64,000 nt of DNA from Candidatus Magasanikiibacteriota bacterium (GTDB lineage Bacteria; Patescibacteriota; Patescibacteriia; Magasanikbacterales; GWA2-37-8), in NCBI GenBank assembly GCA_963802255.1, contig CAWDHY010000001.1, forward strand, positions 555,842 through 619,841, written 5' to 3'. Positions 795 to 51,062 of the stretch are shown here, piece by piece. Below the pieces are notes generated by a model. That model was not told the DNA's origin. It was given only the letters and a program-made list of their open reading frames with translations, and did no database searches. How positions within the stretch are numbered: position 1 is the first letter of the stretch; each line of letters starts with the position of its first letter. The position numbers and the translations under genes are program-made.

Positions 795-820
795 ATTAAA
801 AAATCCCCATTTTTTGGGGC
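795..820 (-). terminator. Intrinsic terminator downstream of ftsW
   Basis: Minus-strand hairpin GCCCC-AAAAAA-TGGGG followed by a T-tract (plus 805-819 is ccccattttttgggg). Confidence 0.5.
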
Positions 821-840: not shown

Positions 841-1950
841 TTACCTCGACCCTCTGCTGATGCTGGCAACAATTCCAACTGCAGCGAGACATGCCATAAG
901 AGACGACCCTCCATGACTCACAAAAGGCAAAGTAACGCCGGTTAATGGCAACAAGCCGACCATCGCGCCGATATTTATGAATGATTGCCAAAAAAACCAA
1001 ATCATAATCCCGGAAACAAGCAAAAAACCGTATTCATCGGTCGCTTCTTTCGCGATTTTGAATCCCCTCCATGCAATAAGCAAAATTAACACTACAACGC
1101 CGGACGAAAAAATAAAACCAAGTTCTTCAGCAATAACAGCGTAAATAGAATCAGCCTGAACTTCCGGTAAATAAGCGTGCTTTTGACGCGAATGGCCAAA
1201 ACCTAGCCCCCAAAAACCTCCTGAACCGACCGCTAAATACGCTTGATTAACATGGTAACCAACACCTTGCGGGTCGAGCTCCGGATGTAAAAAGATCGTC
1301 AGACGATTCATGCGATAAGGCGCTACAAGCGCAATCATAGCAAAACCAACAATCCCGACTAAGCCGATAATAACAAGATAAACTTTTGGCGTCTTGGCTA
1401 AAAATAACATGCCATATGTAACACCGCATATAACTGCAAGTGTTCCGATATCCGGTTGCAGTAATATGAGAATCATTACCGGCGCAATAACACCAATAAC
1501 CGGCAACAAACCGTGTTTAAAATCCCTGAGGTCACGATGCGGATCACTCAACATCTGGGCGAGAAGCATAATTATACCCAATTTAACAAACTCAGCCGGT
1601 TGAAAATGAAAAATACCGACATCAATCCAGCTTTTGGCAAATTTGTTAAAATCCGCCCCGACACCCGGAATAAAGACAATTATTAATGCCACCAGACAAG
1701 CAAAATATGCTACCCAGCTTATTCGCTGCCAAAATTTTGCTTTGAAACGTATAAAAATAAAAAACAAAAACAGGCCCGGCAACAAACCGAACAAAACCTG
1801 TCTTTTTACAAAATAATAAATATCGTCAAATCGGCTATAGCCATATGGGGCGCTCGCCGAAACTAAAACAGCCAGGCCAAACAAAACTAACAAGGCCACA
1901 TAAATTAAAAAAAGTCGATCAGTCTTTTTTTCTGTCGGTCTTTCCATCAT
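841..1950 (-). CDS. ftsW: SEDS-family peptidoglycan glycosyltransferase (FtsW/RodA)
   Basis: 369 aa, polytopic. It has the conserved FtsW/RodA block ...GGFWGLGFGHSRQKHAYLPEVQADSIYAVIAEELGF... and sits at the end of the dcw cluster. Confidence 0.85.
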   Translation of the reverse strand: MMERPTEKKTDRLFLIYVALLVLFGLAVLVSASAPYGYSRFDDIYYFVKRQVLFGLLPGLFLFFIFIRFKAKFWQRISWVAYFACLVALIIVFIPGVGADFNKFAKSWIDVGIFHFQPAEFVKLGIIMLLAQMLSDPHRDLRDFKHGLLPVIGVIAPVMILILLQPDIGTLAVICGVTYGMLFLAKTPKVYLVIIGLVGIVGFAMIALVAPYRMNRLTIFLHPELDPQGVGYHVNQAYLAVGSGGFWGLGFGHSRQKHAYLPEVQADSIYAVIAEELGFIFSSGVVVLILLIAWRGFKIAKEATDEYGFLLVSGIMIWFFWQSFINIGAMVGLLPLTGVTLPFVSHGGSSLMACLAAVGIVASISRGSR

Positions 1951-1956
1951 AATGTT

Positions 1957-2310
1957 CTACAAATTAATTTCGACCAGCAGGTACACGGCTAAAACCAAAA
2001 AAATTTGAAATAATGCCGCGCAAATTGATAAAATTCGCGATATAATTTTGTCAGAATTATAGCTATAAAATGAGAGTAAAAAATTTACAAGTATTAAAAC
2101 TAGGCCACCAAGCGGTAAAAATAACGCTTTCCACCAAGCACCAACCAAATCAATCCCGAAAATATTGTTATAGTGTAAAAAGGCCTGTTCGCCTGTGACA
2201 CTAAGCTTGAACACTATATAAAACCACATAAATAATTGCCCGGCCGCGGAAAAAATTATCGGCACGATAATCCAGGGGTCCTTGAAAAATACTTTTAATA
2301 AATAAAACAT
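1957..2310 (-). CDS. Hypothetical small membrane protein
   Basis: 117 aa with 3-4 predicted TM helices. Tightly packed between the ClpC-like gene and ftsW. Confidence 0.4.
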   Translation of the reverse strand: MFYLLKVFFKDPWIIVPIIFSAAGQLFMWFYIVFKLSVTGEQAFLHYNNIFGIDLVGAWWKALFLPLGGLVLILVNFLLSFYSYNSDKIISRILSICAALFQIFLVLAVYLLVEINL

Positions 2311-2313
2311 AAA

Positions 2314-5088
2314 TTAGATTACAGTGAGCGATCCTCCTTCGCCGAGCAAAATTTTACCGCGCCTTGAAACTTTGCCGGATAATATAAGTTCCGCCAGTTT
2401 ATTTTCTACGCGCTCTTGAAGCGCCCTGCGCATTGGTCTGGCGCCAAATTCGGGATCAAACCCAACCGAAGCGAGAAAATCGAGAGCAGTATCTTCGACC
2501 ACAAGTTCAATTCCTTTGGCCTCAAGATCCTTCGCGACTCGTGTAAGCATTATGCCTGCAATCTTTTTAATATCTTCCATATCAAGCGGTTTAAACAAAA
2601 CTATGCCGTCAAAACGATTTAAAAATTCCGGACGAAAATACTGTTTTAATTCTCCATGTAATAAGTGCTCTTTAATTGAGTCTGAAGAAGCGCCTTCTCT
2701 CATCTGTTCCTGTACATATGAGGTTCCCGCGTTTGACGTGGCAATAATAATAACATTTGTAAAATCTATAACTCTGCCTGTGCTGTCCGTTAACCGGCCG
2801 TCGTCCATCACTTGTAGAAATAAATTCAAAATATCAGGGTCGGCTTTTTCAATTTCATCAAGTAAAAGAAGCGTAAAAGGATGTCGCCGGATAGCTTCAG
2901 TAAGTATTCCCGTCCCCTTTTCACCCGGCGCTCCGATTAACCGATATATTCCGGATTTATCCTGATATTCACTCATATCAATTCGCGTCATCCTTTCTTC
3001 ACCGCCAAAATACACTTGTGAGATAGTTTTAGCCAATTCTGTTTTACCCACACCAGTAGGACCAAGAAATAAAAAGTTGGCTATCGGTCTTTGTTTTGAC
3101 CTAATTTCAACTCTGGCTCGGCGCAACGCGTTCGCCACCAAATCAACAGCTTCATCTTGTCCAATAACACGCTTATGCATTTCTTCCTCCAATTTTAGAA
3201 GCTTGCCGGTCTCATCTGTGGTTACGGAAGTAACCGGAATGCCGGTCTTGTCCGCAATAATAAATGCAATTTCTTCAGATGTTACCAGGGTATCGGCCCC
3301 TTTTTTTGAACGCGCATATCCCGCGGCTTCGCTCGCAATTTCAAGCGCACTGCCCGGTAAATATGTTTCATGCAGATACCGCGCCGACAACTGAACGGTT
3401 TTTTCAACGGCGCTATAGGCGAAAAAGACTTGATTTTTATACTCTAACGCTCCAATTTTTGATTCGACAACCTGTATTGCCTGATTTTCGTCCATCTCCT
3501 TAATATCAATTTTTGTAAATACGTTAGATAGCGATGTATCGGATACATGACGCGCATATTCTTCATCAGTTGTTGTTGCTATCGTCAGAAAATTTCCACC
3601 TTTTAAATATTCGGCTAATGTATCCGCCACATCAAGACTACTTCCCTCACCCGCCGATACACCCACTAGTTCATGAATATTGTGAATAAATAATATTACG
3701 TTTCTTGCCTTCGCTATCTCATTCATTATACCCACTAATCTTTCTATCGCTCCGGCAGGTGTTGTTCCGGCTAATAAAGACGGTACACTAAGTTTAACAA
3801 GGCGCTTATCTTGTAAACGAACCGGTACGTCATCTTCAACCATTCTTTGCGCCAAACCTTCCACAATAGTTCTTTTACCTACGCCGTGAGGCCCAACCAA
3901 AATAACACTCATTGAACCGCCGTCAACGACCCGAAAAATCTCTTCATTTTCTTTCTCTCTTGCGGCGCAATAATCATAGTGACCGAGCTGGGCATACAGC
4001 GTCATGTCTTCGCTTAAAGAATTTAAAAAAGGAGTCGATAAAGCTGTCATCGCTTTATCCATTCCTGTCTTTGACCGATGGCTAGCCGCGCGGGATAATT
4101 TTAAATATTGCCGGTACAAACGCTCCCTTATGCGAGCCCATTCAACAACATTCAGCAGTTGATTTTTCTCAACATTCAAATCATACATCAACTCCTGCAA
4201 AAATGGCGACTGTTTGATTGTAGCAACTAACAATTCGGTAACACTGACGTATTCCTGATGTGCTTCGTAAGCCTCTTCATACGCCCGAAACAAAATTTGT
4301 TGAATATCAGGCGACAGAAGCGGCATTGACGCTGAACTTTGCGTTTTAGCCGGTAAACCATAGGAAGATGAGATGTCATCTTGCAACGCTTTTGCCGGAA
4401 TTCCAAGCCTGATAAATACATTGGAAATGCGATTAAATGAAAGCAATGCGTAAAAAAGATGCTCCGGGGTAACAGTAGGATAATTATTCTTATCGGCAAA
4501 TCTGTATGCTTCGGCTAGAACCGACATTGCTTCATCAGTGAAAGCGCCATTTACTTTATGCCACTTATTTTTTGGAATAGACATGGCCTGAGTCCAATCG
4601 GAAACTATCTGTTGCTCGTGATCTTCACCCAAATCTTTAGCTTTATAATCATATTTTTCGACTAAACCACTTTTTTTTCTTTCCACAATCACGCGGTACC
4701 ATAAAGCACACAAGAAAATCAGACCCAGCCAAAATAAAAATTTATACTGTCCGTCAAGCGCAAAAAAAACTTCCGGCCACATATCCGGTGATGAAACAAA
4801 ATTCTTCACCAATCCGCTTTTATAAATTAAAAATAAAAACCATACCCATGAATTAAGCCATAATACAATCAGTGTGATGCGGCGGATTTTATTCCAAATT
4901 CTTCTGCCGTTTAAAAGCGCAAGATTGTATCTTGTGAGCGGATAATCCCAGAACAACCACCGGTTTCTTTTCCATACGCCAAGAGACGACGTCTTGCAGA
5001 CAGAGCATTTCCGTAAACCAACCAGACCGGTTCCTTTGCACGACGGACAAGATAAGACATTAAGCTGTGGTAACTCTTCAAACATCAT
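2314..5088 (-). CDS. ClpC/ClpB-like double-AAA+ ATPase with N-terminal zinc ribbon and two TM helices
   Basis: 924 aa. N-terminus has CPSC...CSVC (C4 zinc ribbon) followed by two hydrophobic helices. Clp_N-like repeats follow (TPEHLFYALLS). AAA-1 Walker A is GPHGVGKR; AAA-2 Walker A is GPTGVGKT, with the sensor/arginine region ...GARPMRRALQ. Confidence 0.8.
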   Translation of the reverse strand: MMFEELPQLNVLSCPSCKGTGLVGLRKCSVCKTSSLGVWKRNRWLFWDYPLTRYNLALLNGRRIWNKIRRITLIVLWLNSWVWFLFLIYKSGLVKNFVSSPDMWPEVFFALDGQYKFLFWLGLIFLCALWYRVIVERKKSGLVEKYDYKAKDLGEDHEQQIVSDWTQAMSIPKNKWHKVNGAFTDEAMSVLAEAYRFADKNNYPTVTPEHLFYALLSFNRISNVFIRLGIPAKALQDDISSSYGLPAKTQSSASMPLLSPDIQQILFRAYEEAYEAHQEYVSVTELLVATIKQSPFLQELMYDLNVEKNQLLNVVEWARIRERLYRQYLKLSRAASHRSKTGMDKAMTALSTPFLNSLSEDMTLYAQLGHYDYCAAREKENEEIFRVVDGGSMSVILVGPHGVGKRTIVEGLAQRMVEDDVPVRLQDKRLVKLSVPSLLAGTTPAGAIERLVGIMNEIAKARNVILFIHNIHELVGVSAGEGSSLDVADTLAEYLKGGNFLTIATTTDEEYARHVSDTSLSNVFTKIDIKEMDENQAIQVVESKIGALEYKNQVFFAYSAVEKTVQLSARYLHETYLPGSALEIASEAAGYARSKKGADTLVTSEEIAFIIADKTGIPVTSVTTDETGKLLKLEEEMHKRVIGQDEAVDLVANALRRARVEIRSKQRPIANFLFLGPTGVGKTELAKTISQVYFGGEERMTRIDMSEYQDKSGIYRLIGAPGEKGTGILTEAIRRHPFTLLLLDEIEKADPDILNLFLQVMDDGRLTDSTGRVIDFTNVIIIATSNAGTSYVQEQMREGASSDSIKEHLLHGELKQYFRPEFLNRFDGIVLFKPLDMEDIKKIAGIMLTRVAKDLEAKGIELVVEDTALDFLASVGFDPEFGARPMRRALQERVENKLAELILSGKVSRRGKILLGEGGSLTVI

Positions 5089-5092
5089 AATT

Positions 5093-5503
5093 CTATGAAA
5101 AACGCGATAATGAATTGATCAGGCCCCAAACAATGACTACCGGTAAAACAAGCCAAAACAACAATAATATTATGCAAAAAATAAGCCACACAAATAAGGC
5201 GAATCCGCGGCCGATTACCTGAAAAAAACGCATTAAAAAACTTATGATTCTTCCCTGTATATCATACTGACCAAACATCGGTACAAATAAATTTTTTAAC
5301 CACAGACCGGGAGATAAATTTCTATTTCCAATCTGGAATAATTCAGCACACCAAATAAGAGCATGCTTTAAGCCACCCGTATACCACCATAGAGGAAAAT
5401 ACAGCGCGTCCAAAAATGTTTCAACAAACAAGCGCTGTATAATTAGATATAACATAAGATATTCTTCACTATGAATTATAGCACAAATAAAATAGCCGTC
5501 CAA
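5093..5503 (-). CDS. Hypothetical membrane protein
   Basis: 136 aa, hydrophobic. It lies in the dcw cluster between ftsL and the Clp-like ATPase. Confidence 0.4.
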   Translation of the reverse strand: MDGYFICAIIHSEEYLMLYLIIQRLFVETFLDALYFPLWWYTGGLKHALIWCAELFQIGNRNLSPGLWLKNLFVPMFGQYDIQGRIISFLMRFFQVIGRGFALFVWLIFCIILLLFWLVLPVVIVWGLINSLSRFS

Positions 5504-5541
5504 GGCGTATATGGCTGATTGAACGGCTGTTGAAAATGTAT

Positions 5542-5913
5542 TTATCTTTTGGCGACCGCTATATCAACCGGTTTAATGTATTTAATAAATGAAACAGAAG
5601 TCATCCCTGATGACTGCACTCTTTTTTCTAAATTCGGAAGAGCATTAAAACTCGCAACTTCCACATTTATTTTTTGGATTTCTGATTTTAAATCAGACAC
5701 TTTTTTCTGCAAGTCGCGCATTTCATAACCGCTTCCGGAGGCGACGCTCACCTGGCAAATAAAGGCGACCAGCAAAGAAGCAAAAATTCCAACATAGGCA
5801 AACCGTGCTTTTGGACCGCCAATCCATGCCGGCACAGACAAGCAACGATAATAACCGATCAGCCAGCGTTTATAATGTTCAACCTGATATTTAATTTTTC
5901 TTTTTAATATCAT
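5542..5913 (-). CDS. ftsL: Cell division protein FtsL-like (septum formation initiator)
   Basis: 123 aa with a single TM segment followed by a coiled coil (LQKKVSDLKSEIQKINVEV). It sits directly after rsmH with a 4-nt overlap, the canonical mraZ-rsmH-ftsL order. Confidence 0.5.
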   Translation of the reverse strand: MILKRKIKYQVEHYKRWLIGYYRCLSVPAWIGGPKARFAYVGIFASLLVAFICQVSVASGSGYEMRDLQKKVSDLKSEIQKINVEVASFNALPNLEKRVQSSGMTSVSFIKYIKPVDIAVAKR

Positions 5914-6818
5914 ATCTTAATTACTGCTCGCAATTTAGCGCTTCTGGAACGCCTGTTGCCCTTCAGCTCATTTGCTTGCGGGCAAATTGGTTTTTTATTA
6001 ATTAATTCAATTTGCTTGCCGGCAATACCGGCGAAAAATTGCTTAACAATTCTATCCTCGAGTGAATGAAATGTTATTACTGCCAATTTTCCGCCAGGCG
6101 AGAGCAGGTCAATCGCTTGAGGCAATGCTTGTTTTAATGACTCAAGTTCATGATTTACCGCTATGCGCAATGCTTGAAATACTTTTGTTGCCGGGTGTGA
6201 ACCGCCTATCCAAGGAATTTCCTTGTCACTTTGCAGTTTGCTCTTGTATACCGACAGGACTATATCAACGAGCTGTTTAGTTGATAAAATCAACTCAACC
6301 TTTCTCAATGTTACAATTTCTTTTGCAATTTCTTCTGCAAATTTTTCTTCCCCAAATTGCTTAAAAATCTTTTTCAATTCCGGCTCACTATAATTATTTA
6401 AAATATCTGACGCTTTTTCTCTCGTGGCTTCATAGGGGTCGAACCTCATATCTAATAACTCGTCTTTATCAAATGAAAATCCCCTCCCCCTTTCCTCAAA
6501 TTGCGGAGATGACCACCCAAGATCCATGATAATTACATCCGCATTTTTGAACCCGTTCGCTTCTGCAATATTTTTTAAATCCTTAAAATTTGCTTTAGCA
6601 AAGGTAACTTGTTCTCCAAATTTGTATAAGTACCTTTTTGCCCTAAGCAGAGATTCCGGGTCAGTATCAATGCCGAATAATTTACCTTTTTCTCCGACAG
6701 CTTCGAGAAAGGCTTCAGCATGACCACCATCGCCCAAGGTGCAATCTATTACCACATCTCCCTGTTCTGGTTTTATCAATTGAATTATTTCATTTAAAAG
6801 TACTGGTTCGTGTCTCAT
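5910..6818 (-). CDS. rsmH: 16S rRNA (cytosine1402-N4)-methyltransferase RsmH (MraW)
   Basis: Has HxPVLL...DCTLGDGGHAE...SFDK...and the C-terminal RsmH domain. The ORF-track start (6905) would add a 29-aa Lys-rich extension that overlaps mraZ. The internal start MRHEPVLL at 6818 abuts the mraZ stop and is more plausible. Confidence 0.85.
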   Translation of the reverse strand: MRHEPVLLNEIIQLIKPEQGDVVIDCTLGDGGHAEAFLEAVGEKGKLFGIDTDPESLLRAKRYLYKFGEQVTFAKANFKDLKNIAEANGFKNADVIIMDLGWSSPQFEERGRGFSFDKDELLDMRFDPYEATREKASDILNNYSEPELKKIFKQFGEEKFAEEIAKEIVTLRKVELILSTKQLVDIVLSVYKSKLQSDKEIPWIGGSHPATKVFQALRIAVNHELESLKQALPQAIDLLSPGGKLAVITFHSLEDRIVKQFFAGIAGKQIELINKKPICPQANELKGNRRSRSAKLRAVIKI

Positions 6819-6819
6819 A

Positions 6820-7281
6820 TTAAATTCCCAGTTCCGCCATCCTTTCGGCGATTTCCCCGCTTTCAGTTTCCGTTTGTGTTTTATATGTTTTCCACTCTGA
6901 TTCATCCCAAATTTCTAAACGGCTATACAACCCGGCAACGACTACTGCTTTTTTTAAACCGGCAAACGAACGGAGATACTCCGGAAGAACCAACCGGCCC
7001 TGTTTGTCTATGTCCATATCCATCGCTCCGGCAAGCATTAATCGGGCAAAAGCCCGGCTGTCTGCTTGGCTGATTGGCAAAGCAGCCAATTTTTCCGCCA
7101 ACTTTTCCCATTCATTTTTTGTATAAAGAAAAAGGCAGTTGTCCAAACCTCTGGTGACTACCGCTCCCCCTTTAAGTTCTGCGCGAAACTTTGCCGGAAT
7201 TGCCAGCCGCCCCTTATCATCTAGATTGTGGGAGTATTCGCCAATAAACATAAAAACTGGATATTTACCACTTTTCACCAC
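6820..7281 (-). CDS. mraZ: Transcriptional regulator MraZ
   Basis: Duplicated MraZ/SpoVT-AbrB-like halves: DDKGRLAIPAKFR and DKQGRLVLPEYLR. It is the first gene of the dcw cluster. The start may be GTG at 7281 or ATG at 7251 (MFIGEY). Confidence 0.85.
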   Translation of the reverse strand: MVKSGKYPVFMFIGEYSHNLDDKGRLAIPAKFRAELKGGAVVTRGLDNCLFLYTKNEWEKLAEKLAALPISQADSRAFARLMLAGAMDMDIDKQGRLVLPEYLRSFAGLKKAVVVAGLYSRLEIWDESEWKTYKTQTETESGEIAERMAELGI

Positions 7282-7349
7282 TACTAACCATTTTATACCA
7301 CTTTAATACATGCGTCAACACAAAACACCATAATATTTTTGGCTAATAT

Positions 7350-7379
7350 AAAACAAAAAATCCCGCTTTAAACGGGATT
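7350..7379 (-). terminator. Intrinsic terminator after the beta-CASP RNase gene
   Basis: Hairpin AATCCCG-cTTTAAAc-CGGGATT (7359-7379). A T-tract follows on the minus strand (plus 7351-7358 is the A-run). Confidence 0.6.
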
Positions 7380-7400: not shown

Positions 7401-8765
7401 TTAAAACTGAACCGGAGTATCAGGTGTGGCAACTTCAGTTGGAATTTTTAACTCATTCTCAATTCTTCCGGCAAGGACTTCACTTTGGGTAATGTCACCA
7501 TGATTCAATATTACTTTCTTCGGCATCGCCCCGTCATTTTTTATCCAGCTAAATAGTCTGGCCCGGTCCGCATGAGCAGATAAAACATCAGCAAACTCAA
7601 TTTTACATTTCACCCGGACATTTTCACCCAAAAAATTTACCTGCGGCGCGCCATCTAATATTTTTCTGCCTAAAGTATGGGGCGCCTGAAAGCCTGTAAA
7701 AAACAAAGTATTTTTCTCGTCAGACAAATAGCGTAAAGCGTGATGCTGAATTCTGCCTCCGTTCATCATTCCGGCGCCGGCAATTATCACTTTTCTTCCA
7801 CGGAGACTGTTAATTTTTCTGGAATCGTCCCTTGAATAACAAACCTTCAATCCGTGGAAGTGAAACAGATCATCTCCGGAAAATAAATGTTTTTTTGCTT
7901 CATCATCAAAATATTTTGTATAACGGCTAAAAACATCAGTTGCGTCTATAGCCATCGGAGAATCAAGAAAAATAGGAATATCTTGAGGGAATGATTTTTC
8001 AAGGTCAATCAATTCATTTAGGTCATAAAGGATTTCTTGCGTTCGCTCCACCGAAAAAGCCGGAACCATCAAAACCCCTCCCCTATCCATAGCTTTTTTA
8101 ACAACGCTCTTAATAACATTCTGTCTGTCCAATTTTGTATTGTGCAGCCGGTCTCCGTAGGTTGATTCACAAACCAACAGGTCAACTCCATCGGGGAGTT
8201 TGTCTGTATCACGCAAAATCGGCACTTTCACATTGCCCAAATCTCCGGAGAAAACGATTTTTTTCCCTGAACAATTTATTTCTACAAATGCTGAGCCAAA
8301 TATATGCCCGGCTTCATAAAATTTAATCGATACTTTTTCAGCGGACGATAAGGTAAACTCTTCATAATATTCAATGTTCTTACACTGCCCTACAGTTGCT
8401 GTAACATCGTCTAAGCTGTATAAAATTCGCGTGCCATATTTCTTATTGTTGTATGTCATTATATCAAACGCATCTTCTAGCACTATTTTAATTAGGTCGA
8501 TGGTCGGTGGTGTAGCAAAAATAAATCCTTTATAACCGGCTTTTATAAGCAAGGGCAAGCGGCCAATGTGATCAAGATGGGCATGCGTCACCACGACTGC
8601 ATTCAAGGAACCAGCTTCAAATACGAATGGATCTGCGTTTCTATCTTCGACAAAATCACCGCCCTGGAAGGCGCCACAATCAACCAATATCCTGATATTG
8701 TTATGTTCAAAAAGCGAACAGGACCCTGTTACCTCGCCAGCCGCCCCGAAAAATGAAATATTCAT
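7401..8765 (-). CDS. Metallo-beta-lactamase-fold beta-CASP ribonuclease (RNase J/CPSF-like)
   Basis: 454 aa. Has the HxHxDH motif (VVTHAHLDHIGRLP) and downstream beta-CASP-like conserved D/H residues. The size fits the CPSF73-like bacterial beta-CASP family. Confidence 0.7.
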   Translation of the reverse strand: MNISFFGAAGEVTGSCSLFEHNNIRILVDCGAFQGGDFVEDRNADPFVFEAGSLNAVVVTHAHLDHIGRLPLLIKAGYKGFIFATPPTIDLIKIVLEDAFDIMTYNNKKYGTRILYSLDDVTATVGQCKNIEYYEEFTLSSAEKVSIKFYEAGHIFGSAFVEINCSGKKIVFSGDLGNVKVPILRDTDKLPDGVDLLVCESTYGDRLHNTKLDRQNVIKSVVKKAMDRGGVLMVPAFSVERTQEILYDLNELIDLEKSFPQDIPIFLDSPMAIDATDVFSRYTKYFDDEAKKHLFSGDDLFHFHGLKVCYSRDDSRKINSLRGRKVIIAGAGMMNGGRIQHHALRYLSDEKNTLFFTGFQAPHTLGRKILDGAPQVNFLGENVRVKCKIEFADVLSAHADRARLFSWIKNDGAMPKKVILNHGDITQSEVLAGRIENELKIPTEVATPDTPVQF

Positions 8766-8850
8766 AAAAAAATAAGCAAATTATTTGATAATTATACCAC
8801 AATTTATACCCTACACAAATAGATAAAGTTCTGCTATACTTAGAGCGAAT

Positions 8851-9567
8851 ATGATAACAAATCCAGACGATAGAATAAAAGGCGTAGAAATAATTGAACC
8901 GCCAATCCAGGAGCTAAAAAAACGCGGATCATGGCTAACAACCGCTTGTATGAGCGGCTGCAGTTTTATCTTAATTTTTATCATTGGAGTTGTAATCGGG
9001 GTTAAAATGTTTATTGGCGCCGGGCCTAAGGAAATTAAAAATTTGCCGGAAAATTTTCCGGCAAACATTCCTGTCTATGACCAATATAATATTGATAAGA
9101 TAACCCTCATTTCAGGACGATATAAAAGCCGGAGCATGGAGGTGTCAGCTCTTTTTCCAAAATTAATTTTGTCACCTCTTATATTAAGAAACGAACAACA
9201 AGCGGGCGAGGAAAATATAGGAATCATCCGTCAACTTTGGCTCGCCTTCACCGAGCCGGTCGGCGATAACAGAGATACCGTTCAGATTGAATGGCGGAAC
9301 ATATCAAGTGATGCGACTACTATGATTGCTTATTATAAAAATAAACTTGACGATGCGCTCTGCACGGTAGAGTCAGAAACTGCCGGTATAAATTATAATC
9401 AAATCACATTTAACTGCGAAAATGAATTAAGCGGAACTATATACGTTCAAATGGGTGAAACAAAAAAAATGATATCTTATGCTTATTTAATAATTAATTT
9501 ATCTCCAAATAATTCTGAAACTCCGGCAGACACTTCATCGAGCACAATACAATCAGCTGAAGATTAA
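8851..9567 (+). CDS. Hypothetical membrane-anchored protein
   Basis: 238 aa with an N-terminal TM helix (ILIFIIGVVIGVKMFIG) and no recognisable motif. Preferred over the overlapping 85-aa minus-strand ORF at 8811-9068. Confidence 0.45.
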   Translation: MITNPDDRIKGVEIIEPPIQELKKRGSWLTTACMSGCSFILIFIIGVVIGVKMFIGAGPKEIKNLPENFPANIPVYDQYNIDKITLISGRYKSRSMEVSALFPKLILSPLILRNEQQAGEENIGIIRQLWLAFTEPVGDNRDTVQIEWRNISSDATTMIAYYKNKLDDALCTVESETAGINYNQITFNCENELSGTIYVQMGETKKMISYAYLIINLSPNNSETPADTSSSTIQSAED

Positions 9568-9578
9568 TTATTCGTAAC

Positions 9579-11198
9579 ATGATTTTAGGACAGCTTAACA
9601 ATCAATCAAAAACGATTACCGGTGCGGCGCTGATCATTGCCTCAGCCACGCTTCTTAGTAAACTTATAGGGCTCATCCGAGACAGGATACTTGCCCATTA
9701 TTTTGGCGCAGGTGAAATTATGGATGCCTATTACGCCGCCTTCAAGATTCCGGATCTAATTTATACTTTGCTTATTGTCGGTGCTCTTACCGCCGGATTT
9801 ATTCCAACATTTACAAAATTATTTTACGCCGGCGAAGAAAAAAGCCCCGCATGGCGGCTAGCAAATAATATCTTCAATATCGGGGGTCTGATAATCGCAG
9901 CTCTCAGCATTTTAGGACAAATATTAGCCCCATTACTCGTACCGGTTATTGCTCCCGGATTTTCCGAAGCCAATCGTGAACTTACCATTTCTTTAACCAG
10001 GATAATGTTTATTTCGCCATTATTTTTCGGTTTATCAATGACCCTGGGAGGAGTTCTTCAATCATTAAGGCGTTTTGTCCTATATTCAATCGCTCCAATT
10101 TTTTATAATTTAGGCATTATTATAGGAACCGTATTTTTCGTTAAATTTTGCGGACCAATCGGTCTTGCTTGGGGCGTTGTACTTGGCGCGGTATTGCACT
10201 TCTCTCTTCAAATGATAGGCGCCTACAATGGGGGCTGGCGCTGGAAATGGCACTTTGATTTAAAAGATCCTGAAACCCGTTTGGTGGCCAAGCTAATGAT
10301 TCCCCGCACTCTTGGTCTCGCAGTTACTGAAATTAACGTTTTTGTTGTGACAATTCTGGCATCTCTCTTGCCCATCGGCAGTGTGGCTGTTTATAACTAC
10401 GCCAACAATCTTCAGGGTGTTCCGACCGGAATTATAGGCATTCCGTTTGCGCTGGCTGTTTTTCCTCTTCTATCAGTGGCGGCGGCAAAAAACAATACCC
10501 AGGAATTTATAAAATATTTAAGCAGTACGGCACGGCAGATAATTTTTTTAGTGATTCCAATTTCTATTATTGTACTGCTTTTAAGAGCACAAATTGTCCG
10601 CGTTGTACTTGGTTCAGGAGCCTTTGACTGGAGCGCGACCACTGCCACGGCAAACGCATTGGCTTTCTTTTCCTTCGGGCTATTTGCTCAATCGCTCGTC
10701 CCTCTTTTAGCGCGCGCTTTTTATTCGCTTTGCGACACAAAAACACCATTCGTAACAGGCATTATTGCAGAACTTATTGCAATTATCTCTGCTCTAATAT
10801 TAATGAAGCCGCTGGGAGTGGCCGGCCTGGCGCTTGCCTCTTCTATTGGAGCTATCGTAAATCTGACACTACTATCAATTTATTTACGAAAAAATACCGG
10901 TGGAATTGAAGGAGAAAAAATAATTTCATCTCTGTATCGCGTTTCTATTGCGGCTATTGCCATGGCCGTTGTAATACAATTATTGAAATATCCTCTGGCT
11001 GATATTTTTAATCTTAATTATTTCCATGGCGTGCTGGGGCAAGGCCTAACAGCTGGAATAGCCGGTCTTATTGTTTACGGCTTCATTTGCTGGCTATTAA
11101 AAGTACCTGAATTTATTTCTATAAAAGAAGCCTTAAAAAAACGCTGGCTGAAAACCCGCAATATTGACACTCCTGAACTTATTGAAACAAAAGAATGA
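9579..11198 (+). CDS. murJ: Lipid II flippase MurJ (MviN)
   Basis: 539 aa with about 14 TM segments. The N-terminus matches MurJ: LLSKLIGLIRDRILAHYFGAGEIMDAYYAAFKIPDL. Confidence 0.85.
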   Translation: MILGQLNNQSKTITGAALIIASATLLSKLIGLIRDRILAHYFGAGEIMDAYYAAFKIPDLIYTLLIVGALTAGFIPTFTKLFYAGEEKSPAWRLANNIFNIGGLIIAALSILGQILAPLLVPVIAPGFSEANRELTISLTRIMFISPLFFGLSMTLGGVLQSLRRFVLYSIAPIFYNLGIIIGTVFFVKFCGPIGLAWGVVLGAVLHFSLQMIGAYNGGWRWKWHFDLKDPETRLVAKLMIPRTLGLAVTEINVFVVTILASLLPIGSVAVYNYANNLQGVPTGIIGIPFALAVFPLLSVAAAKNNTQEFIKYLSSTARQIIFLVIPISIIVLLLRAQIVRVVLGSGAFDWSATTATANALAFFSFGLFAQSLVPLLARAFYSLCDTKTPFVTGIIAELIAIISALILMKPLGVAGLALASSIGAIVNLTLLSIYLRKNTGGIEGEKIISSLYRVSIAAIAMAVVIQLLKYPLADIFNLNYFHGVLGQGLTAGIAGLIVYGFICWLLKVPEFISIKEALKKRWLKTRNIDTPELIETKE

Positions 11199-32830: not shown

Positions 32831-32856
32831 AAAAACGAGCCTAGAGCTCGTTTTTT
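32831..32856. terminator. Bidirectional terminator shared by rnhA (+) and dnaJ (-)
   Basis: Hairpin ACGAGC-ctaga-GCTCGT with the dnaJ stop codon in the loop. A-run on one side, T-run on the other. Confidence 0.6.
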
Positions 32857-33938
32857 AATTCTTCCAACAACTGTTTTGTTTTTTTACTGATTTTTTTTGG
32901 TACTCGTATTTTCACGCGAACATAATGGTCTCCCCTGCCCGACCGGCCCAGATGAATAATTCCACGCCCTTTAAGACGAATTAACTGACCTGACTCGGTT
33001 CCCTCAGGTACAATCACAGTCAAGTCGCCATCCAAAGTTGGTACCTGAATTTTATCGCCGAGCGCGGCTTGAGTAAAATTTATTTCGGATTCCGTGTAAA
33101 CATCAAAATTTTCGCGATGAAAAAGTTTTTGTGGTTTAATATGAACGCGAACATACAAGTCTCCGGCCGGCGCGCCATGTGGAGCGGCTTCACCATGTCC
33201 TGACAAACGAATTGCCTCACCGTCGTCAATGCCGGCAGGTATTTTAACTTTAATTGCCGATGTCTTTGACAAAACGCCATCACCTCCGCAATGTTTGCAT
33301 TTTGCCGACGGTTTCTGCCCACGCCCGTGGCATTCCGGACATGTCGTAACCGTTTGCATTACGCCTAAAAATGTTCTCTGCTGTTGTACAACTTGTCCTT
33401 GACCACGGCAAGCCGAACAAGTATCCATCTTGCTACCCGGTTCCGAACCGCTACCATGACAAACATCACATTTTGACTGCTTACGCAAAGAAATTTCTTT
33501 TTCAATACCAAATGCCGCTTCTTTAAAATCTAATTCCGCATCAACCTGAATATCACGGCCGCGGCCTTGTCCTCTTCCGCCGCCGAATGATGACCCGCCC
33601 TGAGATGAAAAACCGAAAATATCGCCAAATATATCTCCAAGGTCAATTCCGCCGGAAAAACCACTCTGTCCACCGCGCGCCGCGCGCATAAAATCATCCC
33701 AGCTGGCACCGCCAAAACCGCCCTGCTGTTCAAAATCAGCACCAAATTGATCGTATTTGGCTCTTTTTTCAGCGTTACCGACCACCTGAAAGGCTTCATT
33801 AATCTCTTTGAATTTTTTTTCATCTCCTCCCGGCCGGTCCGGATGATACTGCATGGCCAATTTTTTAAAGGCCTTTTTTATTTCATCCTGAGTCGCTGAT
33901 TTATCCACCCCAAGTAATTTATAATAATCCTTTGACAT
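32841..33938 (-). CDS. dnaJ: Chaperone DnaJ
   Basis: J-domain with HPD (YHPDR), a G/F-rich linker, four CxxCxGxG zinc-finger repeats and a C-terminal domain. Confidence 0.9.
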   Translation of the reverse strand: MSKDYYKLLGVDKSATQDEIKKAFKKLAMQYHPDRPGGDEKKFKEINEAFQVVGNAEKRAKYDQFGADFEQQGGFGGASWDDFMRAARGGQSGFSGGIDLGDIFGDIFGFSSQGGSSFGGGRGQGRGRDIQVDAELDFKEAAFGIEKEISLRKQSKCDVCHGSGSEPGSKMDTCSACRGQGQVVQQQRTFLGVMQTVTTCPECHGRGQKPSAKCKHCGGDGVLSKTSAIKVKIPAGIDDGEAIRLSGHGEAAPHGAPAGDLYVRVHIKPQKLFHRENFDVYTESEINFTQAALGDKIQVPTLDGDLTVIVPEGTESGQLIRLKGRGIIHLGRSGRGDHYVRVKIRVPKKISKKTKQLLEELKNEL

Positions 33939-33940
33939 AA

Positions 33941-35854
33941 TTATTTAACCACTTCTCCCTCAATCGGCCCTTGATCACCGCTTTTATCATCATCTGTTTT
34001 TTGACCGCTATTTTCTGAAGTTTGACCGGTACCGTCGGTTTTTTGTCCGGCAGAATACATTTTTACTCCGACTGCTTGTGCCGACTTTGACAAAGCGTCA
34101 CAGGCTTTTTTAATAGCCTCAACATCATCTTTATCTTTCACATCCTTAACCCATTTTAGCCCTTCATCAACATTTTTCTTTTCGTCATCAGTAATGGCAA
34201 CTTTCTTTTCTTCAACTTCTTTCATCATTTTTTCAGTCGTATAAATCATTGTATCAGCAATATTTTTTACTTCAATCAACTCCTGTTTTTTCTTGTCGTC
34301 AGTCGCATGTGCTTCCGCTTCCTTCTTCATTCTTTCCACTTCTTCTTTAGAAAGGCCGGAAGAAGCCTCGATGCGAATTGACTGTTCTTTATTAGTCGCC
34401 TTATCTTTTGCTTTGACATTCAAAATTCCATTTGCGTCAATATCAAATGTTACCTCAACTTGAGGTACACCGCGTGGAGCCGGTGGAATTCCATCAAGCA
34501 TGAAACGACCGAGAGTTTTATTGTCACCAACCATTGGCCTTTCTCCCTGCAAAACGTGAATTTCCACACCAGGCTGATTATCAGCCGCTGTGGAAAATAT
34601 TTGCGTTTTCGAAGTCGGTATGGTCGTGTTCCGATCAATAAGTTTGGTCATCACACCACCCAAAGTCTCCAGTCCGAGCGACAATGGAGTGACATCCAAT
34701 AATAGTATGTCTTTCACTTCACCCTTGAGCACGCCGCCTTGCACGCCGGCGCCAATTGCTACAACCTCATCAGGATTCACTGTAATATTTGGCTTTTTTC
34801 CAAAAAACTTTTCAACAACAGATAAAACTAACGGCATACGGGTCATTCCGCCAACTAAAACTATTTCTTCTATATCAGAGGCCTTTAATTTAGAGTCTTC
34901 AAGCGCTTTACGAACCGGTTCCAATGTTTTATCAACCAAATCACCGACTAATTCTTCGAGTTTTGACCGTGTCAGTTTCATCACTAAATGTTTTGGCCCT
35001 GATGCGTCAGAAGTGATAAACGGCTGATTAATCTCACTTTCCTGAGCTGTGGATAACTCAATTTTCGCTTTTTCAGCCGCTTCCTTAATACGTTGTAAAG
35101 CTAAATTGTCCTGGCTCAAATCAATGCCTTGTTCCTTTTTGAATTCATCGATAATCCAGTTAATCAGGACCTGGTCAAAATCATCACCGCCTAAATGAGT
35201 ATCTCCGTTGGTTGAAAGAACTTGTACATTATCAGGAGCAACTTCAAGAATGGAAATATCAAAAGTGCCGCCGCCCAAATCATACACTGCAATCTGCTGA
35301 TTTGTCTTTTTGTCAAAACCATAAGCTAACGCCGCCGCAGTCGGCTCGTTAATTACACGAAGCACGTTCAAGCCGGCAATTTCACCGGCATCTTTTGTCG
35401 CTTTTCGCTGGGAATCGTCAAAGTATGCCGGAACAGTAATAACGGCATCCGTAATTTTTTCGCCGATTCGTTCTTCAGCGTCCGCTTTCATTTTTCCCAA
35501 TATCATGGCTGAGATTTCCTGAGGAGAATATTCTTTTCCCTGCATCAGCACCTTTACACCTTCGCCGGCCTGCACAATTTTAAAAGGCATTAATTTCAAG
35601 TCTCTCTGAACTTCTGCGTCATCCCATCTTCGGCCAATCAGACGCTTAATTGAATACAGCGTATTTTCAGGATTGGTTACAGCCTGACGCTTTGCTAATT
35701 GTCCAACCAGCCGTTCGCCTGATTTTGAAATTGCCACAATCGACGGAGTGGTCCGCGCCCCTTCCTTATTTTCCAATACTTTCGGCTGACCTCCCTCAAT
35801 AATCGCCATACATGAATTAGTTGTTCCGAGATCAATTCCAAGTACTTTAGACAT
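33941..35854 (-). CDS. dnaK: Chaperone DnaK (Hsp70)
   Basis: [13 protein letters not shown] and DLGGGTFD signatures. I prefer the start [10 protein letters not shown] at 35854; the track start 35893 would overlap the hsp20 3' end. Confidence 0.9.
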
Positions 35855-35867
35855 AAAAAATTTTGAT

Positions 35868-36293
35868 TTATTTTTTAACAACTTTAACATCAACTTTTTT
35901 TGTTTTGGTTGATAGAGCTTTCGGGCATGTAATTTTTAATACTCCGTTCTTAAATTCAGCCGAAACCTTATCTTCTAAAACCGGTGCCGGTAAGGCAAGA
36001 ACCCGATAAAATGAGCCGCTTCGTACTTCTTTCCGGTAATAATTTTTTTCCTCAACCTCATGCTCTTTTTTTGTTTCTCCCTTAAGCGTCAGCACGCCTT
36101 TTTCCACACTCACGGAGACATCCTCCGGCCGCATGCCGGCAAGTGGTGCTTCTACCACGACGGTCTTCTCATCTTCGTATATATCCACCGGCGGCACAAA
36201 AGCTTTTAACGACGGATTTACTGCCGGCAGGCGCATCGTATCGTCAAACTCGGCAAAAGGGTCCCAAATTGGAGACCAACGGATTAATGACAT
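35868..36293 (-). CDS. Hsp20/alpha-crystallin-family small heat shock protein
   Basis: 141 aa with an alpha-crystallin domain (...[13 protein letters not shown]...VLKITCPK). Confidence 0.8.
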
Positions 36294-36351
36294 AAAATTT
36301 CTCCGATTATTCCATAGCCGGATGGTTATGGAATAAATAAAATATTAAAAT

Positions 36352-37236
36352 TTATTTTCCCACCAAAACCCTCGCCGCTTTGATCACCCTATCACCCATT
36401 TTGAAACCGGCAGATATTTCTTTTGTTATTTTATCTCCTTTTTCACCGGACACCTCTTCGTAGCCAACCGCTTCATGTAACCTCGGGTCAAATTTTTCCC
36501 CTACGGTTTTTATTTCTTCCACATTATGGGCTTTAAATATATCGGCAAACTGTTTTAGCACGTGTCTAACTCCATCCAACCATGCATTATTCTCTCCTAC
36601 TGTCTGATCATTATTAATAGCCAATTTTAAATGCTCATATACCGGAATAAACTCTTCCAAAATTTGCTGTTCGCTCATTTGCGCCCATTCTGCACGCCGT
36701 AAAACAATTTCTTTCTGCAAATTCTGATAATCAGCCAATGCTCTTTGCCAATTGATTTTTAATTCATCAACCTCATTAGACGCATTTTTATCCTCAAAAT
36801 GTTTAATATAAAAATTAATTGTTGCAGCGGTAAAGGAGTCAATTTTATATTTCTTATTTGTTAAAGCTTCCCGCGGATCCTCCCAAACCCATTCACTCAT
36901 TTCTCTGCTTATTTTTAGCTCACCACCGCACATATGAACAGCATAATCCAAAAAAATAAAATGAGCTTTGCGGTGAAACATTTTTGGTGCATTCGCTTCC
37001 TGAAAACCGATATATTCAACCTGGTCGACTTCTAACCCGGTCTCCTCTAAGATTTCGCGCTTAACAGTGTCTTCACAAGATTCACCGAGCTCAACATGCC
37101 CGCCGGGAATATGCCAGCGTTCACCCCACTTGGACGAACGTATTAGAAGCACTTTTCCCTCATCATTATATATTAGCGCGCCGACAGTCGGCTCCGGATA
37201 TGTTTGTTTCCATTCTGGATTATATTCAGCAGGCAT
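36352..37236 (-). CDS. grpE: Nudix hydrolase domain fused to nucleotide exchange factor GrpE
   Basis: N-terminus has a perfect Nudix box G-x5-E-x7-REUxEExGU: GHVELGESCEDTVKREILEETGL. C-terminus is GrpE-like with a coiled coil and the beta-sheet domain: KFDPRLHEAVGYEE...GDRVIKAARVLV. It sits in the grpE slot of hrcA-grpE-dnaK-dnaJ. Confidence 0.75.
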   Translation of the reverse strand: MPAEYNPEWKQTYPEPTVGALIYNDEGKVLLIRSSKWGERWHIPGGHVELGESCEDTVKREILEETGLEVDQVEYIGFQEANAPKMFHRKAHFIFLDYAVHMCGGELKISREMSEWVWEDPREALTNKKYKIDSFTAATINFYIKHFEDKNASNEVDELKINWQRALADYQNLQKEIVLRRAEWAQMSEQQILEEFIPVYEHLKLAINNDQTVGENNAWLDGVRHVLKQFADIFKAHNVEEIKTVGEKFDPRLHEAVGYEEVSGEKGDKITKEISAGFKMGDRVIKAARVLVGK

Positions 37237-37240
37237 AGTT

Positions 37241-37930
37241 TTATTTTATAAAATTATAGACGGCATTTATCACAGCCAGGTTTTTTTTATAATTCATGCG
37301 CGTTGGCCCTAAAATAATAAATAACCCATCTTTCGTTTTTCCTAAACGGCTCGCGACGACGCTTAAATAATTACCAAATGGGTGCTCGCTGCCGATAAAA
37401 ATACTGGGATCAGCCTTAACTTTACCGACAAATTTATCCAAACAATCTTCACACCGGTCAAACATCTTTGATGTGCTGATAACCATGTCCGTATTAACAA
37501 ATTCCGGTTTCTCAAATAAATTTGAAAAACCCGTGTAATAGACTTTATCCAGAGTAAACGCAACAATAATCGCCTCACGTGAAATATTTGCCGATTCTTT
37601 TGCCACCGCTTTACATGAGGATTCATATTCTTTATATCCTCTAAAAGCGCTTTCTATCCCTAAGAATTCTTTGTTTGTAATTTTAACTTTATCTTTTTGA
37701 AAGGCCTCCACATAAAAACGGTAGCCAAGCTCAGTGGGTATGCGGCCGGCTGAAGTATGCGGATGAGTTAGATATCCGGCTTCTTCTAGGGCGCGCAAGT
37801 CATTTCTGACTGTCGCTTCACTCCAGCCAATTTTTTCCTCATATGCCAAAAATTTTGAACCGACCGGCACAGCCGTTTCGATAAAATTTTCTATTACTAA
37901 GTTAAGCAGTTCTTTTTGGCGATTTTCCAT
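37241..37930 (-). CDS. hrcA: Heat-inducible transcription repressor HrcA (short form)
   Basis: N-terminal winged-helix region LLNLVIENFIETAVPVGSKFL...TVRNDLRALEEAGYLTHPHTSAGRIPT. It is immediately preceded by a CIRCE-like operator. At 229 aa it is shorter than canonical HrcA. Confidence 0.75.
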   Translation of the reverse strand: MENRQKELLNLVIENFIETAVPVGSKFLAYEEKIGWSEATVRNDLRALEEAGYLTHPHTSAGRIPTELGYRFYVEAFQKDKVKITNKEFLGIESAFRGYKEYESSCKAVAKESANISREAIIVAFTLDKVYYTGFSNLFEKPEFVNTDMVISTSKMFDRCEDCLDKFVGKVKADPSIFIGSEHPFGNYLSVVASRLGKTKDGLFIILGPTRMNYKKNLAVINAVYNFIK

Positions 37931-51049: not shown

Positions 51050-51062
51050 ATTATTTCTTCTC

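Follow-up and report, generated by a model that had tools for sequence, protein, structure and literature searches.

Which protein occupies the place of FtsI within the dcw gene cluster (for division and the cell wall) of Magasanikbacteria, and what might it do there? The question is raised by a stretch of 64,000 nucleotides (hereafter the window) from Candidatus Magasanikiibacteriota bacterium (GTDB lineage Bacteria; Patescibacteriota; Patescibacteriia; Magasanikbacterales; GWA2-37-8), that is, positions 555,842 to 619,841 of the forward strand of contig CAWDHY010000001.1 in assembly GCA_963802255.1. The cluster under study spans positions 841-7281 of the window, all on the minus strand. The canonical dcw order is mraZ-rsmH-ftsL-ftsI-murE-murF-mraY-murD-ftsW, and we checked the E. 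coli cluster as far as murE. The Magasanikbacteria cluster has the same order at its head (mraZ-rsmH-ftsL-like) and at its tail (mraY or ftsW), but the slot of ftsI(-murE-murF) is filled by the genes of a small membrane protein and of a membrane-anchored Hsp100/Clp paralogue of 924 aa. We call this paralogue Clp*, and the two small membrane proteins of the cluster smA and smB. Judged by its motifs, Clp* is an undescribed Hsp100 subfamily, with a predicted membrane anchor, a first ATPase ring (D1) predicted to be dead, a second ring (D2) whose motifs are intact, and neither aromatic pore loops nor an M-domain nor a canonical ClpP loop.

Seven open reading frames (ORFs) make up the cluster, in the following order:

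6820..7281, minus strand: mraZ, 153 aa (PF02381, 5e-44; TIGR00242, 155.9 bits, above the cutoff of 98.35)
5910..6905, minus strand: rsmH (mraW), 16S rRNA m4C1402 methyltransferase (PF01795, 2.3e-99; TIGR00006, 298.7 bits, above cutoff)
5542..5913, minus strand: FtsL-like bitopic protein, 123 aa, one transmembrane (TM) helix followed by a coiled coil
5093..5455, minus strand: smA, 120 aa from the conserved start Met17 at 5455; the ORF reaches 5503
2314..5088, minus strand: Clp*, 924 aa (AAA_2, 9.6e-54; ClpB_D2-small, 2e-25; Clp_N, 1.1e-5; AAA_lid_9)
1957..2310, minus strand: smB, multi-pass membrane protein of 117 aa
841..1950, minus strand: ftsW, SEDS peptidoglycan polymerase, 369 aa (PF01098, 1.5e-96; TIGR02614, 363.5 bits, above the cutoff of 337.5)

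This is the order described in an earlier reading made by a model from the nucleotide letters and their translations (the sequence-only reading), and it was confirmed, with the identity of FtsL being probable. In fact, mraZ, rsmH and ftsW all score above curated cutoffs on one strand, so that the head of a dcw cluster is found together with division and peptidoglycan genes; the RodA model gives the ftsW product 293 bits, below the RodA cutoff. The true start of rsmH is probably Met30 at 6818, 1 base past the mraZ stop, as indicated by the Pfam match and the layout. The FtsL-like protein matches NCBIfam FtsL_Actino (2e-6, 27.6 bits against a cutoff of 55) and Pfam FtsL_2 (0.05), and the alignment of its family with E. 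coli FtsL by hhalign gave no support (probability 0.7%). FtsL proteins diverge strongly, and it is mostly their place in the cluster that identifies them (PMC8871954). In this case the FtsL identity is probable, from location, architecture and weak model matches.

How widespread is the arrangement? A pattern scan limited to one genome per species returned 61 loci, whose neighbouring genes were assigned by tblastn with the window proteins. The informative record titles in this set are Magasanikbacteria or unclassified Patescibacteria, and many loci bear other database labels. We found smA directly upstream of the Clp* gene in 57 of 58 loci, mraZ and rsmH within 5 kb upstream in 46 of 51, and the FtsL-like gene in 44 of 51. 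Downstream of Clp* lies mraY (Pfam Glycos_transf_4) in 36 of 50 loci and smB-ftsW, the order of the window, in 11 of 50. Such recurrence in 61 species-level genomes takes the arrangement far beyond chance. A second scan, made with an alignment of very distant N-terminal relatives, returned 29 metagenome loci, in which Clp* is 32-43% identical to that of the window; smA is upstream of Clp* in 25 of these 29, and mraY is downstream wherever the sequence allows. Since smA-Clp*-mraY was kept in the distant clade and mraZ-rsmH mostly was not, the evolutionarily stable core is smA-Clp*-mraY. The smA and Clp* genes are genetically locked together, usually also to mraY or ftsW, inside a dcw cluster or in an arrangement derived from one, and the tightest conserved partners of Clp* are smA and mraY, rather than ftsW.

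The sequence-only reading had named beforehand two findings that would speak against it, namely a gene order confined to this assembly and membrane segments not predicted as helices; instead, the order occurs in dozens of genomes and the segments are predicted helices. An artefact of a single assembly was also considered, and it is ruled out by the 61 + 29 independent loci.

Some variation was seen around the core. One Magasanikbacteria genome (L035:3668-4762) has its ftsW upstream of mraZ rather than downstream of Clp*, which indicates that dcw genes were shuffled around a stable smA-Clp* pair. Two loci carry a large ORF without Pfam match between Clp* and the next gene (L044:10809-12884, 691 aa; L025:10781-12247, 488 aa). 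In a distant locus, the ORF at L085:9802-11373 (523 aa) combines MraY (Glycos_transf_4, 83-242) with a C-terminal QueH epoxyqueuosine reductase (352-523), and may represent either a gene fusion or read-through across two genes. Many related contigs (L004, L009-L011 and others) carry the record title "uncultured Gammaproteobacteria bacterium" or "Candidatus Udaeobacter"; by gene content and similarity they belong with Magasanikbacteria, and these labels are probably placeholders or wrong.

Is the slot then occupied by a living gene? Many catalytic motifs of Clp* are degenerate, and one could suppose a decaying or non-functional paralogue, or an artefact of assembly or annotation. The conservation of the family leaves this hardly credible. 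The best 120 database clusters of Clp* are almost all 878-954 aa long with at least 57% identity (the window protein itself is 100% identical to database entry P0008), invariant positions number in the dozens, even the degenerate motifs are conserved, and the same gene order is present in independent assemblies. Moreover, dN/dS against the closest relative (L001) is about 0.04, the only usable omega because dS is saturated beyond that relative, and D1 is as constrained as D2 (dN 0.091 in D1, 0.095 in the N-domain and 0.075 in D2). The pseudogene explanation is effectively refuted by conservation and dN/dS. Clp* is therefore best described as a protein under strong purifying selection despite the loss of its pore tyrosines and of one catalytic ring, and the gain of an anchor and a zinc ribbon. 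The N-terminal module is rare, with 54 clusters among 1.84 billion representatives. A search with the first 388 residues found Magasanikbacteria proteins only.

Could the transpeptidase simply lie elsewhere in the neighbourhood? We found ftsI, murE and murF neither in the slot nor in any of the 90 flanks examined. Pfam scanning of 46 of the 52 window ORFs of at least 150 aa gave no transpeptidase or GT51 domain. Additionally, phmmer searches with the FtsI, MrdA and MrcB of E. coli, run over every stop-to-stop ORF of 60 aa or more, returned zero matches to penicillin-binding proteins (PBPs) at E<=1 in the window and the 61 related loci, and zero at E<=0.01 in the 29 distant loci; as a positive control, E. 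coli MrdB recovered the window FtsW at 1.4e-47. The statement that no penicillin-binding transpeptidase is present in the window thus holds. As for the statement that ftsI is replaced, it is correct in the sense of a positional substitution, seen in the window and in the examined flanks, but Clp* is a cytoplasmic ATPase by its predicted topology and as such cannot itself supply the extracytoplasmic transpeptidase activity of FtsI.

One distant subclade has a gene for an L,D-transpeptidase of the YkuD type (PF03734, 5.8e-20) directly after mraY (L085, at 11380-12078, and L086, L088, L089, L092 and L093), and weak YkuD-like ORFs occur upstream of smA in two Magasanikbacteria loci (L039:502-1830 and L023:4983-5978). 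Such genes may bear on how peptidoglycan is cross-linked without a nearby PBP in these lineages.

What, then, is the protein that fills the slot? Its parts are the following, with motif states taken from 105 full-length family members aligned to E. coli ClpA and ClpB as references:

4996..5049, minus strand: C4 zinc ribbon (C14, C17, C28, C31), CxxCxGxG-like, the four cysteines invariant in 105/105
4687..4881, minus strand: TM hairpin (TM1 about aa 70-90, loop 91-112, TM2 about aa 113-134), predicted from hydropathy, the positive-inside rule and AlphaFold2 (AF2)
4099..4548, minus strand: Clp_N double repeat, strongly conserved (Pfam 1.1e-5; aligns to ClpC 4-150; dN 0.095 against L001)
4042..4065, minus strand: linker motif GMDKAMTA, aa 342-349, with 7 of 8 positions invariant and K345 variable
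3295..3948, minus strand: D1 ring, predicted catalytically dead (Walker A GPHGVGKRT, Walker B ILFIHNIH)
2317..3294, minus strand: D2 ring, catalytic motifs intact (GPTGVGKT, LLLLDEIE, sensor-1 N786, R825, GARP)

The N-terminal extension of Clp* (aa 1-180) consists of the zinc ribbon and the TM hairpin. The C4 zinc ribbon, the two TM helices and the Clp_N repeats had all been recognized in the sequence-only reading, and they were borne out by the invariant cysteines, by hydropathy together with the AF2 model, and by Pfam, respectively. The four ribbon cysteines are also kept in distant relatives. The ribbon weakly matches DnaJ_CXXCXGXG (E 0.003, below cutoff); a ClpX/ClpE-type domain was tried as well and rejected, as the Pfam ClpX-type zinc-finger model gives no match. 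ClpE and ClpX are like Clp* in having an N-terminal C4 zinc-binding element before the ATPase, to which Clp* adds the hairpin after the ribbon. In the hairpin, the family-mean Kyte-Doolittle value is 1.85 for TM1 and 1.55 for TM2, lysines and arginines number 7.6 before TM1 against 1.2 in the 21-residue loop, and AF2 places helices at 53-91 and 113-138 in a block with a pLDDT of roughly 71-90. The same layout was found in the distant relatives. The predicted topology is N-terminus in, short loop out and C-terminus in, which would put zinc ribbon and ATPase alike on the cytoplasmic side. After the N-domain, the linker motif GMDKAMTA (NRAMTA in distant relatives; AF2 pLDDT <50 over 338-349) has the look of a short linear motif conserved for binding; ClpA, ClpB and ClpC have nothing comparable.

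An N-terminal anchor would turn the entry face of the ring to the membrane, as in FtsH and Msp1. Clp* could accordingly be imagined as a membrane-tethered but otherwise conventional Clp unfoldase or dislocase, threading divisome or membrane proteins like FtsH or Msp1 without the protease, and a role in unfolding or proteostasis was also what the sequence-only reading had proposed. The Hsp100 architecture and fold and the complete D2 ATPase site are in keeping with such a role. FtsH itself resembles Clp* in having an AAA+ ring at the cytoplasmic membrane face and two N-terminal TM helices per subunit, but its only AAA module bears an aromatic pore loop and is followed at the C-terminus by an M41 zinc protease, whereas Clp* has two Hsp100 modules and neither a protease domain nor an aromatic pore residue; Pfam gave no Peptidase_M41 match in Clp*. 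The state of the two rings is what makes the proposal unlikely, as follows.

The degenerate first Walker A reported earlier was found again (GPHGVGKRT). Across the family, D1 keeps its fold, and the Walker A pattern is G-x-x-G-V-G-K-[RK]-[ST], in which the P-loop lysine is kept and the canonical residue after it would be T. We found further losses beyond those of the sequence-only reading, namely the D1 Walker B, the arginine fingers, the pore-loop tyrosines of both rings and the M-domain. The D1 Walker B reads ILFI[HNQ]N instead of ILFIDE, with HN, NN or QN in 92 of 105 members. The arginine fingers of D1, RR in ALxRRF, are changed to [NDG]-V (L-S-N-V-F in the window). At the D1 pore loop, ClpA and ClpB read AG[TA]KYRG and the window AGTTPAGAIE, the pore tyrosine being gone. 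In D2, by contrast with D1, the catalytic motifs GPTGVGKT, LLLLDEIEKA, N786, R825 and GARP are invariant (DE in 105/105, R825 in 105/105). The D2 pore loop reads G-x-P-G-E-K-G-[TS]-G (GAPGEKGTG in the window) against GAPPGYVGY, a deletion of four residues that removes the tyrosine and the GYVG motif. No aromatic pore-loop residue occurs at the D1 or the D2 site in any of the 105 members or in the distant relatives. The same losses were seen in relatives of about 900 aa whose N-termini are 24-33% identical (P0288, P0289, P0297 and P0298).

The pore tyrosines of ClpB, Hsp104, ClpA and ClpX are needed to grip and translocate polypeptides, and mutating the D2 pore tyrosine of ClpB, Hsp104 or ClpA abolishes translocation. 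With both rings devoid of aromatic paddles, Clp* most likely neither threads nor degrades substrates. Nor is this a general trait of the lineage. A canonical Clp of 879 aa (L085:3666-6305, minus strand) lies divergently right upstream of smA-Clp* and keeps GYVG, DELH and IGF; close homologues are found in L086, L089 and L093, the motifs having been checked in the L085 copy. The losses are thus specific to the Clp* paralogue rather than lineage-wide drift, and Clp* is an extra paralogue, not the only Hsp100 of the cell. The earlier proposal of an unfoldase role in proteostasis is not supported, as the pore tyrosines of both rings, together with the Walker B and arginine fingers of D1, are gone from all family members examined. 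With D1 predicted dead, GYVG deleted from D2 and motifs retained next door, a membrane-tethered unfoldase is a disfavoured possibility, to which we give a low probability.

Public annotation of Clp* as ClpC or "ATP-dependent Clp protease ATP-binding subunit" points to yet another possibility, namely that it serves ClpP as ATPase partner in the breakdown of division proteins at the membrane. This would agree with A-G-[L/V/I], the family consensus at the place where ClpA has its IGL loop. However, the window reads R-E-G-A-S at this site (E-G-A at the loop itself), the family triplets include AGL (25), AGV (13), AGI (8) and NGV (8), and a [LIV]G[LI] triplet, IGL or IGI, appears in just 2 of 105 members. 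In the AF2 model the site is a four-residue turn between two helices, not an extended docking loop. Besides, without pore loops Clp* could not feed substrate to ClpP, and no clpP gene was found in the window or in any flank examined. We consider a ClpP partnership very improbable, and the Clp protease/ClpC label is probably misleading.

The fold and family placement agree with an Hsp100 that has diverged. The AF2 monomer model, built with 68 family members, has a pLDDT of 81.6 and a pTM of 0.69, and Foldseek matches its D1-D2 core to ClpC, ClpB and ClpC1 protomers with TM-scores up to 0.85. The best solved relatives are S. aureus ClpC (6em8, 1.3e-130) and T. thermophilus ClpB (1qvr, 2.3e-126), with ClpA at 1e-101. 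All NCBIfam equivalog models fall far below their cutoffs: ClpB TIGR03346 gives 565.6 bits (cutoff 1232.1), ClpA TIGR02639 520.8 bits (cutoff 993.15; one stretch, 186-913) and ClpV 451 (cutoff 885). The domain set of class-I Hsp100 proteins is present, that is, Clp N-domain, D1, D2 AAA_2 and ClpB_D2-small; aromatic pore loops are missing from both rings, and a catalytic Walker B and arginine finger are found in D2 but not in D1.

Compared with ClpC and ClpB, Clp* has the order N-domain, D1, D2 and D2-small in common with them, and its D2 is 40-50% identical across the motifs. They differ from Clp* in having an M-domain coiled coil, the D1 Walker B, arginine fingers and pore tyrosine, and the D2 GYVG, whereas Clp* has an additional 180 aa of zinc ribbon and TM hairpin and no VGF/IGF loop. 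Neither ClpC 407-459, the short M-domain coiled coil within D1-small that contacts MecA/McsB, nor the coiled coil of about 120 aa of ClpB has a counterpart in Clp*, in which D1 runs straight into D2. ClpA is closer in this respect, as it also lacks an M-domain and has 281-282 residues between the two Walker A motifs, but it has an IGL ClpP loop and pore tyrosines, and it is a soluble protein that works with ClpS and ClpP. The designation "ClpC-like" in the sequence-only reading is overstated and only loosely right, given the missing M-domain and VGF loop, the low scores of the NCBIfam ClpB, ClpA and ClpV models, and the additional motif losses.

Three shorter proteins, each the representative of its own cluster (P0290, P0291 and P0294, 600-607 aa), combine zinc ribbon, TM hairpin and N-domain with a D1 that is still more degenerate, and all end at the same point of the D1-D2 linker (...PYTKILK). 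They may be variants without D2 or with a split gene, rather than contig truncations.

The constant neighbour of Clp*, the lineage-specific smA, has 188 database homologues, all "hypothetical" and without Pfam match, the named ones being Magasanikbacteria or Patescibacteria records. AF2 models it with a pLDDT of 94.2 as one long helix at 2-47 and another at 66-117, with the invariant loop PGLWLKN.FVPM.GQYD.QGR between them; by the positive-inside rule, this Arg/Lys-rich loop is predicted to be cytoplasmic. Foldseek against the PDB returned for smA only meaningless helical-hairpin matches (E>4), and relaxed Pfam scans gave nothing credible for smA or smB, nor did NCBIfam match smB. The distribution of smB is narrow, with twelve matches in all, always as Clp-smB-ftsW, and confined to the subclade in which ftsW follows Clp*.

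Taken together, these features lead us to propose, with moderate confidence, that Clp* is a membrane-anchored, single-motor, non-threading ATPase that works with smA on membrane enzymes of division or wall synthesis. The ring would sit against the inner face of the membrane, held by up to 12 TM helices, with D1 as a structural ring and D2 as the only motor. A conformational cycle driven by D2 could, together with smA, serve to bind, assemble or disassemble, or switch membrane-embedded division or wall proteins, among which MraY, FtsW and the FtsL-like protein are candidates; the N-domain, the zinc ribbon and the GMDKAMTA linker are likely contact surfaces. Deprived of the parts with which Clp motors grip and thread proteins, Clp* probably has a new function at the membrane site of wall construction.

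A precedent for such a mode of action exists. Torsins are Clp-related, associated with a membrane by an N-terminal hydrophobic segment, devoid of aromatic pore loops and dependent on cofactors (PMC5425593). A Torsin with LAP1 or LULL1 is, like Clp* with its neighbour smA, a Clp relative lacking pore loops at a membrane with a small membrane partner. Torsins differ in being single-ring, eukaryotic and ER-luminal proteins without an arginine finger of their own, whereas Clp* keeps R825 and the sensor-2 GARP in D2, has two rings and is predicted to be cytoplasmic; the comparison is one of analogy, not of subfamily homology. By this analogy, the logic of Clp* resembles that of Torsin plus cofactor, or of FtsEX, more closely than that of ClpB or ClpC. 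A bolder version of the proposal, which we regard as doubtful, is that Clp* and smA form an ATP-powered, non-threading switch or scaffold for septal, lipid-II-linked synthesis (MraY, FtsW, FtsL), that the class-B PBP was moved or lost, and that cross-linking is maybe done by an L,D-transpeptidase; the pair would then be a new divisome component of the candidate phyla radiation (CPR) and a prokaryotic counterpart of Torsin and its cofactor.

Several points weigh against a non-threading role in division. An intact D2 motor with arginine finger and sensors argues for real mechanical work, and threading with unconventional pore residues is possible as far as the sequence goes. The consensus A-G-[LVI] at the ClpP-loop site has a faint resemblance to IGL/AGF. 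In the distant set, mraZ and rsmH are upstream in just one of the 29 loci, and adjacency to mraY or ftsW could be a relic of an ancestral dcw order rather than a functional link. Finally, we infer all functional steps from motif loss and gene neighbourhood; the hexamer and the binding of smA are presumed, and the insertion in the membrane is predicted from a monomer AF2 model and hydropathy.

Some of these points would equally suit a general chaperone. The smA-Clp* pair might serve membrane-protein quality control or the stress response, its location in the dcw cluster being a historical accident. The upstream mraZ-rsmH-ftsL is lacking from 5 of the 51 Magasanikbacteria loci and from almost every distant one, and a promoter-like site lies just before smA in the window (5475-5502, minus strand; TGGACG-16-TATAAT plus an upstream TG, 10/12). 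This site could give smA-Clp*-smB-ftsW a transcription of their own, which is consistent with the loci detached from mraZ-rsmH-ftsL. Nevertheless, mraY or ftsW stays linked to the pair even between clades of 32-43% identity, the cluster of one subclade includes a gene for an L,D-transpeptidase, a separate canonical Clp is encoded in those genomes in which this could be checked, and the loss of the M-domain removes the coupling to DnaK used by disaggregases. A general quality-control chaperone therefore seems to us an unlikely explanation, and an ATPase that acts with smA on division or wall enzymes remains our preferred one.

If this is correct, the consequences go beyond Magasanikbacteria. 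Hsp100 proteins are the textbook threading machines, and Clp* would show that in bacteria their scaffold can be turned to tasks other than threading, a possibility that Torsins suggest in the case of eukaryotes. To our knowledge, almost nothing is known about division or wall building in the ultra-small uncultured cells of the CPR, and the smA-Clp* module is a component specific to its lineage, built into the dcw cluster exactly where FtsI is normally encoded. The arrangement also raises the question of whether the partner of FtsW is a PBP whose gene lies elsewhere or a different cross-linking system. We found no description of the Clp* family in the literature searched, the published work that we found on dcw and class-B PBP diversity does not cover the CPR, and no curated Pfam or NCBIfam model covers the Clp* N-terminal module, smA or smB.

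The seven genes of the window cluster are closely packed, with overlaps or gaps of 3-6 nt, except that 86 nt separate the FtsL-like gene from smA when the latter is counted from its conserved start. The pattern matches below, which are matches to consensus only, fit a seven-gene operon:

7379..7359, minus strand: terminator-like hairpin that closes the upstream beta-CASP gene
7290..7318, minus strand: promoter-like site TTGACG-17-TAAAAT, upstream of mraZ
805..819, minus strand: terminator-like hairpin with T-run, after ftsW

The gene that precedes mraZ encodes a beta-CASP metallo-beta-lactamase (RNase J-like), and lepA, murJ and a gene for a 238-aa protein (8851..9567, no Pfam match) lie on the opposite strand (window 7401-11198). 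In most Magasanikbacteria loci (upstream flanks of L001-L061), this block and the operon are found in synteny. The window ORFs scanned with Pfam include MurJ, MurA, LepA, RecJ, the HrcA-GrpE-DnaK-DnaJ operon, YidC and many glycosyltransferases. In the hrcA-grpE-dnaK-dnaJ operon (37930..32841), the gene at 36352-37236 (minus strand) has a NUDIX hydrolase domain (15-128) fused N-terminally to GrpE (151-294), an unusual fusion for a nucleotide-exchange factor. At 47084-52613 (minus strand), a histidine kinase of 1321 aa with six PAS matches and a GAF domain adjoins a 516-aa protein with a CHASE4 domain, and the pair makes up an elaborate sensory system for a CPR bacterium with a small genome.

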